DNA of 64,000 bases from a virus (taxonomy: Duplodnaviria > Caudoviricetes), in the IMG/VR virus record IMGVR_UViG_3300025653_000030, positions 1 through 64,000 of that record; one strand, given 5' to 3'. The position numbers and the translations under genes were made by a program. This document shows, piece by piece, positions 64-1,036 of this stretch; position 1 is the stretch's first letter; each line of letters begins with the position of its first letter. Below the pieces are notes generated by a model that did not search any database, was not told the DNA's origin, and saw nothing but the letters and a program-made list of their open reading frames with translations.

Positions 64-81
64 TACTGTAATAATTGAGAT

Positions 82-177
82 ATGAATGATATAGTTTGGA
101 TTGATGGAGTTGGATACTGTAAAGAGGTTACAGTTAATGGTAATGTTAATGAGTATCACCCAATAAATAGTAAATAA
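82..177 (+). CDS. Small hypothetical protein (31 aa)
   Basis: ATG..TAA directly downstream of the promoter at 31-63; below the ORF-track cutoff. Confidence 0.4.
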   Translation: MNDIVWIDGVGYCKEVTVNGNVNEYHPINSK

Positions 178-459: not shown

Positions 460-998
460 TAAATGAGTTTGTTGATTGAGAAAGTACTCTAAACAAGTTC
501 AGTTCTTTGAAATAGTACAAGAATCAGAGGGTAACTCCTCGACTTCCCTTTGGGTGGGAAGGTATCGCTTCTCTGTTGTGGAGATGAAAGTGGTTCGAAA
601 CACGAGATATTTCTTATAGTAGGTTCGATTCCTACCTATTTTACTAATGGCTTTGAGAGAAGCTTAAAACGATTGGGGTGGTGACTAAAGTGTCATGGAC
701 AAAGAAGTGAGGTAACTCGTAAGATTACCGATTGTAGCGAGAGTTCATTGATAAAGGTTATGACTGAGTTTAAGGTTATGTTAAGAGAGGTTACATTAAA
801 ATGTTTCATCTGGCCACCCCAACTTTAGTGATGGAGTAAGTCCTTATAGGTGATGAAAGATACTCGGGCATTCAAAGTCCACTCGGTTAGGGGTTTCCGA
901 GGAGGACTATAAAAAGGAGACCAACACACTCTCTCCTATCCTAAGTGTTCATCCGAACCACCCACCAAGAGCACGGTCTCGCTTGGTGGGTTTTTTTT
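460..998 (+). ncRNA. Candidate large structured non-coding RNA (~540 nt)
   Basis: Lies between a promoter and an intrinsic terminator, has no ORF of 60 aa or more, is GC-richer than its flanks and contains many helices (673-682/813-822, 684-690/823-829, 834-838/861-865, 876-880/904-908, 882-886/897-901), GTAA tetraloops and a T-arm. Confidence 0.65.
960..998 (+). terminator. Rho-independent terminator
   Basis: CCCACCAAG(961-969)/CTTGGTGGG(982-990) stem followed by T8. Confidence 0.9.
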
Positions 999-1036
999 GT
1001 CCCTATAACTCGTTGAGGTTGAGGTAGTTACATAAT

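Follow-up and report, generated by a model that had tools for sequence, protein, structure and literature searches.

A probable early gene for a modular structured non-coding RNA of a new family in an uncultured marine phage

Positions 459–998 of the stretch analysed here (64,000 nt, called the window) appear, on sequence and comparative grounds, to be a free-standing early gene of an uncultured marine phage, with a structured non-coding RNA of ~540 nt as its product. The gene and its surroundings contain the following elements.

422–454, + strand: early sigma-70-type promoter found by promoter scan (-35 TTGGAA 424–429, 17 nt, -10 TATATT 447–452)
467–498, + strand: module M1, 5′ hairpin with outer stem 467–473/492–498; its invariant parts are GAUUGAGA (474–481) and CUCUA (487–491), and GAG 478–480 pairs with CUC 487–489
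509–643, + strand: anticodon-less tRNA-like module with acceptor stem 509–515/636–642 and U516 A517, P2 (519–523/611–615), hairpins 527–540 and 543–561, helix 563–566/606–609 enclosing hairpins 570–584 and 590–603, T-arm 619–623/631–635 with loop UUCGAUU, and discriminator A643 followed by CUA
649–664, + strand: module M3, small hairpin GGCUUU/GAAGCU
673–822, + strand: module M4, branched domain of ~150 nt closed by UUGGGGUGGU/GCCACCCCAA
829–874, + strand: module M5, hairpin with conserved loop AGGYGAUGAAA (GAGUA 834–838/UACUC 861–865; UC 841–842/GA 859–860)
876–908, + strand: G-loop hairpin, CUCGG 882–886/CCGAG 897–901 extended by AGUCC 876–880/GGACU 904–908, with loop UUAGGGGUUU (887–896)
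917–922, + strand: pseudoknot strand X, GAGACC, pairing with GGUCUC 975–980 in the terminator loop
929–941, + strand: near-invariant C/U-rich strand CUCUCUCCUAUCC (the 13-mer), complementary to the G-loop (UAGGGG/CUCCUA)
947–958, + strand: small hairpin GUUC 947–950/GAAC 955–958 with a variable loop of 4–5 nt
961–998, + strand: intrinsic terminator, stem CCCACCAAG 961–969/CUUGGUGGG 982–990, then U8 at 991–998; its 12-nt loop (970–981) holds pseudoknot strand Y (975–980)
1481–1735, + strand: linked gene for a conserved 84-aa protein (association only)

The promoter is one of ~11 near-identical early promoters in the 64-kb window (GCTTGGA..TTTTCGTATATT), transcription probably starts at 458/459, and the RNA is preceded by the same promoter in homologues of the family. 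An earlier note on this DNA had described a promoter at 422–454 and a strong terminator that bracket a GC-richer region lacking any ORF of 60 aa or more, and this outline stands: the scan places both hexamers within that promoter, compensatory changes occur in six of the nine terminator stem pairs across homologues, G+C is 0.37–0.47 within the RNA region compared with 0.26–0.34 in the flanks, and the ORF scan of 460–998 returned nothing of 60 aa or longer. The + strand ORFs found there are 20–47 aa long and all start with TTG or GTG, no ATG-started ORF is present in the ~540-nt region, and indels among the copies are not multiples of three. Because the terminator is strong and the downstream genes have promoters of their own (in the window, an early promoter at 1165–1197), we regard the element as free-standing and not as a leader. 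The nearest tRNA, a tRNA-Cys, lies 1 kb downstream of the RNA. Folding energies of the single sequence, compared with shuffles, gave z values of -0.53 for the whole stretch and -0.7 to -0.9 for its parts; because these hold no signal, the case for more structure than expected by chance rests on covariation.

The first homologues were nhmmer matches upstream of homologues of the 84-aa gene, and further ones were gathered with a DNA pattern that retrieved at least 119 metagenome stretches. The family counts at least 110 homologous copies, found on contigs from marine metagenomes and viruses, and covariance model R1 gave two sets of strong matches (at least 79 and at least 37, scoring 73–159 bits), with the window copy at 117.6 bits. 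Family members were defined by an M1 hairpin GAUUGAGA/CUCUA, a G-loop hairpin, a pseudoknot between X and the terminator loop, and the motifs CUCUCUCCUAU...GAACCACCC; the window copy has M1 at 467–498, the G-loop at 876–908, the pseudoknot at 917–922/975–980 and both motifs at 929–963. The invariance of these two key motifs within the set is partly circular, as they served as the fishing pattern, and the first 11 bases of the 13-mer are invariant by construction among the fished copies; the 13-mer is also conserved in five copies that were found by synteny before any pattern was used. Sequence searches of other kinds returned little. A blastn search of 400–1010 found nothing similar in 50,697 phage records, an exact 26-mer from the T-arm region was not found in IMG/VR, and the RNA, when compared by blastn with five long related contigs, shared only 15–18-mers with them, at chance level. 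Synteny searches with the GNAT gene and with the 405-aa gene recovered no relatives, which indicates that the early region is hypervariable. A scan of genome contigs produced eight matches, only one of them real, on a 2.3-kb contig that was binned into an archaeal MAG and is probably mis-binned.

Across the family the RNA measures about 208–852 nt. A core of ~210 nt is common to the copies, and the window copy carries ~320 nt of extra modules, namely the tRNA-like unit, the small hairpin and the 150-nt branched domain. Together with the GAUGAAA-loop hairpin it has four optional modules between M1 and the 3′ domain, each folding separately. The modules are self-contained units that are combined differently from copy to copy; in the short form L097, UUGAAA runs straight into the M5 hairpin, and the counterpart of window 517–833 is absent. 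The RNA is thus a ~210-nt core with ~320 nt of optional modules between window positions 516 and 834, and not a single integrated fold of 540 nt. The gene is single-copy per genome, and because a related phage at 96% completeness is without it, it is accessory. The family is carried by uncultured marine myoviruses, is large, and is absent from Rfam 15.

Every variable helix of the RNA covaries. In the outer stem of M1 all seven pairs show compensatory changes, and 96% of the cells are paired compared with 23–47% for slid partners (MAFFT alignment A6, 42 distinct copies). In the 3′ core, 96.9% of cells are paired compared with 81% in shuffled and 29–49% in slid controls, and 13 of 20 pairs are compensatory; this alignment (A3) is the covariance-model alignment and is fitted to the model's own structure. 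Within A3 the G-loop hairpin has compensatory changes at seven of seven pairs, with up to five pair types, and an invariant GGGG in its loop; the loop of this core hairpin in the family is UAGGGGUUU and is invariant. The GUUC/GAAC stem, by contrast with its variable loop, shows no variation, so that no covariation signal is possible there.

The terminator loop and the upstream purine strand X form a 3′ H-type pseudoknot. At least six contiguous pairs between X and the terminator loop can be drawn in 57 of 59 distinct copies, compared with 5% when the loops are shuffled, and the pairing covaries through the versions AGGGUGAU/AUCACCCU, GGAGGCU/AGCCUCC, GGAGACUA/UAGUCUCC and GGGAGCCA/UGGCUCUC, strand X being purine-rich in all variants. 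The long connecting loop of this pseudoknot contains the CUCUCUCCUAUCC strand and the GUUC/GAAC hairpin, and pairing of X with the terminator loop is predicted to leave the 13-mer at 929–941 single-stranded. Neither this pseudoknot nor the tRNA-like unit was recognised in the earlier note.

The tRNA-like module is represented by 17 distinct variants and, with model R2, was found in 25 of 100 family loci; the same model weakly picks up genuine class II tRNAs at 22–24 bits. In alignment A4 (MAFFT) 99.8% of cells are paired and 13 of 28 pairs are compensatory, while slid controls reach 45–51%. We defined a tRNA-like 'top half' as contiguous acceptor and T-stems, both kept by covariation, with a 7-nt UUCRANU loop, and in the module a 5-bp T-stem directly adjoins a 7-bp acceptor stem. 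Both helices are 100% paired in 17 of 17 variants, acceptor pairs 1 and 2 vary (G-C/G-U, and G-C to A-U), and pairs 2 and 3 of the T-stem covary. The tail that follows the module is ACCA in L178 and ACUA in the window. A search of ten related phage records, and of the sequence beyond the family RNA in 100 loci, turned up no copy of the module standing by itself. The module was also compared with tRNA itself and rejected as such: ARAGORN made no call at 509–643, the consensus has neither a D nor an anticodon arm, and RF00005 scored 17.8 bits in a sub-optimal 63-nt alignment, compared with a cut-off of 29.

Among the other modules, M3 occurs only in the window's own subgroup (L125, L188 and L159) and has two compensatory pairs relative to L159, and the closing helix of M4 shows one compensatory change, from G-C to A-U, also in L159. 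Three to four inner hairpins are predicted in M4, where only one diverged homologue is available for comparison. M5 is known from 74 distinct copies in two main forms, and its outer stems covary (ACGAA/UUCGU, ACGUU/AACGU, GGUG/CACC, GAGUG/CACUC, AUAGUA/UACUAU). The helices that the earlier note had listed are all present where it had placed them, and comparison of homologues supports all but one: compensatory changes were found in GAGG/CCTC (527–540), in CTTCCC/GGGAAG (543–561, in L159), at two pairs of GCTT/AAGC (650–663), at one pair of helix 673–682/813–822, widely in the outer stem of GAGTA/TACTC (834–865), and at seven of seven pairs of CTCGG/CCGAG within AGTCC/GGACT (876–908). The exception is GAG-GTAA-CTC (709–718), which is present but varies only by a one-sided change from G-C to G-U.

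The earlier note had taken the region to be either a GOLLD/ROOL-like RNA or a new class, and had proposed a search of Rfam and a search for homologues with an analysis of covariation. Rfam includes GOLLD, ROOL, HEARO, IMES, OLE, Y RNA, 6S and RNase P. At the gathering threshold Rfam 15 reported only seven tRNAs in the window; at E ≤ 10 it gave only chance-level hits of 12–24 bits over 380–1250 and 495–760, and on three homologous loci it found nothing except one tRNA. Because there is no Rfam 15 match and the family is large and uncatalogued, the second branch of the proposal, a new class, holds and its novelty stands, and the first, GOLLD or ROOL, is rejected, with no Rfam match at E ≤ 10. 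The homologue search likewise delivered both copies and covariation. We are close to certain that the locus is a real gene for a structured RNA and that its family is new. Fragments of it may already be among the 8,495 automatic 'csRNA' predictions of IMG/VR that PMC10690425 describes, in unnamed form.

In general character the RNA does resemble GOLLD and ROOL, which are large, elaborately folded, pseudoknotted phage ncRNAs often located near tRNA genes; it differs from them in its much smaller core, its optional inserts and an intrinsic terminator that is integrated into the pseudoknot. manA is also pseudoknotted and is known almost only from marine metagenomes and T4-like marine phages (Weinberg et al. 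2010, PMC2864571), a setting like that of the window RNA. However, manA usually lies in 5′ UTRs whereas the present RNA ends in its own terminator, and the manA model (RF01745; 192 positions, cut-off 55.2 bits) found nothing at E ≤ 10 anywhere in the 74.5-kb record, nor at E ≤ 1 in five further records from genomes that have the present family or are related, the control genomes likewise giving no match above the cut-off. The likeness to tmRNA consists of a tRNA-like acceptor/T-arm domain without a normal anticodon arm, together with pseudoknots, and the beta-proteobacterial tmRNA model gave a weak partial match over the T-arm (13 bits, E 0.09). Unlike tmRNA, the RNA has no encoded CCA, and its tRNA-like part is internal and contiguous and not made from the two ends of the molecule. 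Assignment to tmRNA was rejected: there is no G3-U70 (the window has A511-U640, and pair 3 is A-U in 17 of 17 variants), ARAGORN made no tmRNA call, and a tag-like frame at 647–667 (MALREA*) is not kept in L159.

For the module 509–643 taken by itself, the closest architecture is that of T4 RNA C (species 1 RNA) and RNA D, small stable RNAs from the tRNA cluster of T4. The shared design is an RNA of ~135–140 nt from a T4-like phage in which the tRNA T-arm and a terminal stem are kept and long internal hairpins replace the D and anticodon arms. T4 rnaC is 139 nt long, with CCGGG-UUCGAAU-CCCGG near its 3′ end, and is a separate gene within a tRNA operon, whereas the window unit is embedded in a larger RNA that runs from promoter to terminator. 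Homology to rnaC or rnaD was rejected, as no similarity beyond the generic T-arm was visible by eye and the likeness is one of architecture. In eukaryotes, MALAT1 mascRNA is a tRNA-like processing signal. Plant mitochondrial t-elements (PMC1920247), although organellar, are likewise tRNA-shaped elements within a longer transcript. By analogy, an embedded tRNA-shaped element could direct cleavage by RNase P and RNase Z and so define RNA ends. A riboswitch or attenuator was also considered and rejected, since the downstream genes have their own promoters and the conserved pseudoknot stabilises the terminator and does not oppose it.

The 84-aa gene follows the RNA in ~88% of judgeable loci: in 67 loci it is found on the same strand downstream of the RNA, and the loci with 700 nt or more of downstream sequence number 77. 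All four IMG/VR homologues of the gene have the RNA upstream. Between 100 and 1500 nt, including other genes, separate the two, and the gene has a promoter of its own in 62 of the 67 loci. Its product has 256 protein homologues, no Pfam or PHROG family and no match among cultured phages, and its predicted structure (pLDDT 88) found no match in the PDB with Foldseek at E ≤ 0.001; an RNA-binding fold was not recognised. The synteny, taken alone, may reflect merely a conserved early-gene block.

Taken as a whole, the observations are best explained, with moderate confidence, by an early RNA gene of a new family, built from a core and modules, that acts in trans as a scaffold or decoy; that mechanism, judged separately, is a tentative proposal. 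The RNA would be made in bulk immediately upon infection and would owe its stability to the 5′ hairpin and to a 3′ end locked in the pseudoknot. Acting in trans, its constant core would bind one conserved partner, for which the co-inherited 84-aa protein is the first candidate, and its interchangeable modules would interact with factors of the host. One of them, the tRNA-like unit, would offer an acceptor/T-arm 'top half' to RNase P, RNase Z, the CCA-adding enzyme, EF-Tu or toxins that target acceptor ends; if RNase P and RNase Z excised it, the RNA would not be one intact scaffold. A more specific and rather unlikely version has the RNA and the 84-aa protein as a new phage ribonucleoprotein, or else an RNA-only multimer held by contacts between the G-loop and the C/U strand, with modules swapped to trap host proteins. 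The pseudoknotted core would then be a universal chassis, with a tRNA mimic, T-loop hairpins and the GAUGAAA hairpin as plug-ins, and the module targets would be host RNA-handling or defence proteins.

Several other explanations have to be weighed against the trans-acting scaffold or decoy. The strongest of them, although we still hold it to be doubtful, is a poly-RNA precursor that host RNase P cuts before G509 and RNase Z or E after A643, releasing a 135-nt tRNA-shaped small RNA, a 5′ hairpin piece and a ~355-nt 3′ sRNA ending in the pseudoknot, each acting separately. An acceptor stem with a T-arm is the minimal substrate of RNase P and RNase Z, and the covarying 7-bp acceptor stem stacked on a 5-bp T-arm, the UUCGAUU loop, U8 and A9, the ACCA tail of L178 (ACUA in the window), the precedent of the 139-nt T4 rnaC with its T-arm near the 3′ end, made in a tRNA operon, and the self-contained modules in varied combinations all favour such processing. 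However, no stand-alone module was found in the ten related phage records or the 100 family loci, and because three quarters of family members are without the module, processing is not the general principle of the family. A base-pairing regulator is improbable, in which the C/U-rich 13-mer at 929–941 would be a seed for purine-rich, Shine-Dalgarno-like sites in host mRNAs or for the GAGAG leaders of phage early genes, masked by the G-loop until refolding. Seeds rich in C and U occur commonly in bacterial sRNAs, no other element is as conserved as the 13-mer, which the pseudoknot leaves without a pairing partner, early protein genes in such phages start (G/A)AUUGAGAG-AUG, and a minimum-free-energy fold predicts that strand X could pair with the 13-mer instead, which hints at a switch. 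Yet the four 8-nt matches to its complement in 64 kb are all in coding sequence and occur at about chance level, the genes in the window have no consistent Shine-Dalgarno motif, pairing with a GAGAG leader would give only 5 bp, and a seed sRNA does not need 200–850 nt of covarying structure.

A self-assembling, RNA-only particle like GOLLD or ROOL, with the G-loop UAGGGG of one molecule paired to CUCCUA of the next and the variable modules displayed outside, is less probable again. Two invariant complementary elements whose pairing can be assigned to neither cis nor trans, and a constant core with a variable periphery, speak for it, and large phage RNAs are reported as homo-oligomers in PMC12286853; against it are the small core (~210 nt) and the lack of resemblance, by sequence or by model, to GOLLD, ROOL or manA. 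There is very little to recommend a cis-acting leader or attenuator, in which read-through into the 61-aa and 84-aa genes further downstream would be governed by the terminator. Conserved same-strand order, with the RNA before the 84-aa gene, and a terminator built into the conserved fold would suit it, but the downstream genes have an early promoter of their own in 62 of 67 loci (1165–1197 in the window), the 84-aa gene lies at 100 to 1500 nt beyond intervening genes, the pseudoknot supports the terminator hairpin and does not compete with it, and in L098 and L101 the element comes after a gene and not before one. That the region has no RNA function, being a decayed gene, a source of small peptides or spacer DNA, can practically be dismissed: its folding energy is no better than that of shuffled sequence and it does contain small TTG/GTG ORFs, but every variable helix has compensatory changes in more than 100 copies, the indels are not multiples of three and there is no ATG ORF.

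Very few large structured RNA classes are left to find, and each of GOLLD, ROOL, OLE, raiA and manA raised new structural and functional questions when it was found. The present family is abundant in marine viromes, with at least 110 copies, its early promoter is strong, and its design is unusual in having an intrinsic terminator with its loop locked in a pseudoknot, a constant core with interchangeable inserts that bring it to about 208–852 nt, and, in a quarter of copies, an embedded tRNA mimic. The ~210-nt core is short enough for direct structural and biochemical work, and the 84-aa neighbour provides an immediate candidate partner. If the modules serve to decoy host factors, the family would be an example of phages evolving RNA-based counter-measures by module shuffling, and if they trap host proteins, it would represent a modular, evolvable RNA decoy platform.

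The RNA gene at about 459-998 on the + strand encodes a long-form new member of an RNA family absent from public catalogues, and its secondary structure is well supported. Its boundaries are as the earlier note had drawn them: a promoter, TTGGAA (424-429) and TATATT (447-452) with a spacing of 17, which is one of ∼11 nearly identical early promoters that the window contains, and a terminator with the stem CCCACCAAG (961-969)/CUUGGUGGG (982-990) followed by eight U. The interval between them lacks an ORF of 60 aa or more, and the few + strand ORFs present have 20–47 aa and start with TTG or GTG, unlike the real genes of the window, nearly all of which start with ATG. It is also richer in G+C (0.37–0.47) than its flanks (0.26–0.34), and all helices listed by that note were recovered at the coordinates it gave. 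Neither the whole stretch (z = −0.53) nor its parts had a predicted folding energy better than shuffled sequence, thus this sequence alone is no proof of structure. The window covers positions 1 to 64,000 of an IMG/VR record that is 74.5 kb long and has an estimated completeness of 43%, and its large ORFs are all on the + strand. Because relatives of the baseplate-wedge gene (hundreds, in marine and freshwater contigs) are uncultured, and its DNA matches to Microcystis phage and Flavobacterium myoviruses are only weak, the source, judged from sequence, is an uncultured, T4-like, low-G+C phage.

Direct DNA searches with the RNA and synteny searches with two nearby genes gave no homologues. For a conserved gene downstream of the RNA (1481-1735), which encodes an 84-aa protein, public metagenomes yielded at least 256 homologues, and IMG/VR searched with an alignment of this protein gave four loci; at all four, the nhmmer check suggested earlier found, upstream of the 84-aa gene, a homologue of window 826-1008 or of the last 90 nt of that interval. 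A pattern from two conserved blocks of these loci, CTCTCTCCTAT and GAACCACCC, retrieved one more virus contig and at least 119 metagenome stretches, with ∼10 chance matches among those listed, and the covariance model of the 3′ core gave at least 79 + 37 strong matches of 73–159 bits. Because the set was collected with these two motifs, their invariance in it is built in; both were, however, conserved beforehand in the five synteny-found copies, at neighbouring-protein identities of 51–74%. Among 185,579 prokaryote genomes the sole true match was locus L229 (JABJFP010000298.1), a 2.3-kb contig in a marine Methanobacteriota (archaeal) MAG with a full-scoring RNA core (117 bits), which is most likely a phage fragment mis-binned into the archaeal MAG. 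The family belongs to uncultured viruses.

Rfam 15 at gathering thresholds reported only seven tRNAs in the window, and permissive scans (E ≤ 10; 380-1250 and 495-760) gave chance-level matches only, the best being to the tRNA model (17.8 bits) and to a tmRNA model (13 bits), the two overlapping a hairpin that resembles a T-arm (619-635), where ARAGORN made no call. At three homologous loci the RNA had no Rfam match either. Of the two options considered earlier, a GOLLD- or ROOL-type RNA was abandoned, as the RNA fails every model test, and a new class stands. The manA model had no match in the record and five related genomes. GOLLD, ROOL and manA are alike in being large phage-borne orphan RNAs but differ in that their models do not match, and the defining features of tmRNA are absent from the window RNA.

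Comparison of short and long forms showed that the core is constant and the inserts are variable. In the short form L097 (∼215 nt) UUGAAA leads directly into the M5 hairpin, whereas the window has ∼320 extra nt (517-833) between the two. Among the matches listed, estimated lengths span 208–852 nt (median near 420), small ORFs being counted in some of the longest copies, and the window copy lies in the upper fifth of the family and is not exceptional. Near-identical copies are L125 and L188, and L159 is a diverged full-length copy.

Features of the RNA in 5′ to 3′ order (+ strand)
After the promoter: M1 hairpin, outer stem around invariant GAUUGAGA ... CUCUA
509-643: tRNA-like unit, 17 distinct variants
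509-515/636-642: its acceptor stem, 7 bp (pair 1 G-C/G-U, pair 2 G-C/A-U), then U516 A517
519-523/611-615: short helix
527-540 and 543-561: hairpins
563-566/606-609: helix enclosing hairpins 570-584 (loop GUUGU) and 590-603 (loop GUUCGAAA)
619-635: T-arm, 5 bp, loop UUCGAUU
649-664: M3, small hairpin, window's subgroup only; two compensatory pairs versus L159
673-822: M4, branched domain, window's subgroup only; 10-bp closing helix, one compensatory pair versus L159; interior predicted
Before the G-loop: M5 hairpin, conserved loop AGGYGAUGAAA, two forms with freely covarying outer stems
Next: G-loop hairpin, loop UUAGGGGUUU; covariation in 7/7 stem pairs, as many as five pair types
917-922: purine strand X
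Next: C/U-rich 13-mer CUCUCUCCUAUCC, then a small GUUC/GAAC hairpin
975-980: terminator-loop strand Y, pairing with X

Covariation among homologues, which the earlier note had proposed to look for, was found as compensatory changes in the M1, G-loop and terminator stems and in the pseudoknot. The M1 outer stem, compared over 42 distinct copies in a MAFFT alignment, had such changes at each of its seven pairs, and 96% of the cells were paired versus 23–47% with slid partners. In the terminator stem six of nine pairs covary. Moreover, X can pair with the terminator loop, with at least six contiguous pairs in 57 of 59 distinct copies versus 5% with shuffled loops, and the partners co-vary: UGGAGACC/GGUCUCCA, AGGGUGAU/AUCACCCU, GGAGGCU/AGCCUCC, GGAGACUA/UAGUCUCC, GGGAGCCA/UGGCUCUC and UAGGGAGGC/GUCUCCCUG. 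In minority variants the match is better to the variant's own partner (7.4) than to that of the majority (5.1–5.7). Hence the 3′ domain is an H-type pseudoknot that contains the terminator. The nested core structure was 96.9% paired, versus 81% when shuffled and 29–49% when slid, in an alignment that was fitted to the covariance model. The M5 hairpin is replaced in a minority of copies. In many copies (L096/L165/L118/L119) a T-loop-like hairpin, AGGG-UUUGAUU-CCCU, stands in place of the M1 loop; this second T-arm-like element has an insertion site different from that of the window's tRNA-like unit.

The tRNA-like unit has neither D arm nor anticodon arm, and ends in ACUA in the window, ACCA in L178, and UACC or AACC elsewhere. 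In an unfitted MAFFT alignment its consensus was 99.8% paired, versus 45–51% when slid, with compensatory changes in 13 of 28 pairs. Its covariance model, which weakly cross-matches genuine class II tRNAs, detected the unit in 25 of 100 family loci, in each case inside the family RNA, and nowhere outside it in ten related phage records. T4 RNA C (139 nt, function unknown), with a T-arm near its 3′ end, is alike in architecture only, without homology visible by eye and in a different setting. One metagenome contig (L182:776-1707) carries two tandem full copies, each with tRNA-like unit and 3′ core. In some long forms, such as L112 (about 2250-2340, oriented) and L123, a 31-aa basic ORF (MSKKLSQKQK...) lies between M1 and the tRNA-like unit, so that a subset of members may have a dual function or contain a mini-gene.

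There is one RNA gene per genome: G000, G007 and G008 have one each, the copy in G007 being the short form L097, and G006 has two at opposite contig ends. It is absent from a related 96%-complete T4-like genome, and is thus accessory. Among the matches listed, 67 loci have the 84-aa gene 100–1500 nt downstream in the same orientation, and in 77 the available downstream sequence reaches 700 nt or more. Its product has no Pfam family, PHROG family or cultured-phage homologue, and is invariant at KHRN, PK.R, RRY and ESERLI.SK. The structure prediction for this protein is confident (pLDDT 88) and shows three strands with one short and one long helix, a novel fold as predicted, with no match in the PDB. 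The leader of the 84-aa gene contains a conserved hairpin, AUGAGCU ... AGCUCAU (1418-1445), with like leaders, GGUACAUGA(G/A)CU...AGCUCACAU, in L145, L111, L133 and L116, which may be an autoregulatory site. Just 3′ of the RNA terminator is the palindrome ATGACA-N3-TGTCAT (1037-1051), which 27 of 90 distinct family loci also have no more than 150 nt past their terminator; it looks like a putative operator for a dimeric DNA-binding protein. In related contigs GAUUGAGAG followed by AUG is an early protein-gene leader, present in weaker form in the window; such a leader may be the origin of M1. Immediately downstream of the promoter and leader that they share, early protein genes (window 73-84 and about 24,290; L149, L157, L138) open with (G/A)AUUGAGA(G/U)-AUG or AAUGAGAGAU-AUG, and no ordinary Shine-Dalgarno consensus is clear upstream of the window's genes, which together hint at an atypical way of initiating translation or an atypical kind of host.

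The RNA is early, free-standing, strongly terminated, highly structured and modular with one constant core. 5′ hairpins and pseudoknot-locked 3′ ends hinder 5′-end-dependent RNase E and 3′ exonucleases, so that the ends of this RNA would fit a stable molecule. The functional site is likely to be the invariant G-loop and C/U strand; the two are complementary (UAGGGG/CUCCUA), and covariation would be blind to whether they pair, within one molecule or between two, because neither varies. A multimer made of RNA only is improbable in our estimate. A seed-pairing regulator is somewhat less so, yet still unlikely, and a search of the window for phage targets of the 13-mer gave chance-level matches only. 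Because an early-promoter −10 motif lies between the RNA and the 84-aa gene at 62 of the 67 loci, the RNA is not simply the leader of that gene, and a cis leader is very improbable. Processing by RNase P/Z into separate small RNAs is doubtful, with perhaps one chance in a few. We tentatively prefer, at less than even odds, a trans-acting scaffold or decoy, because the core is constant, the self-folding modules are swappable and a small protein is co-inherited.
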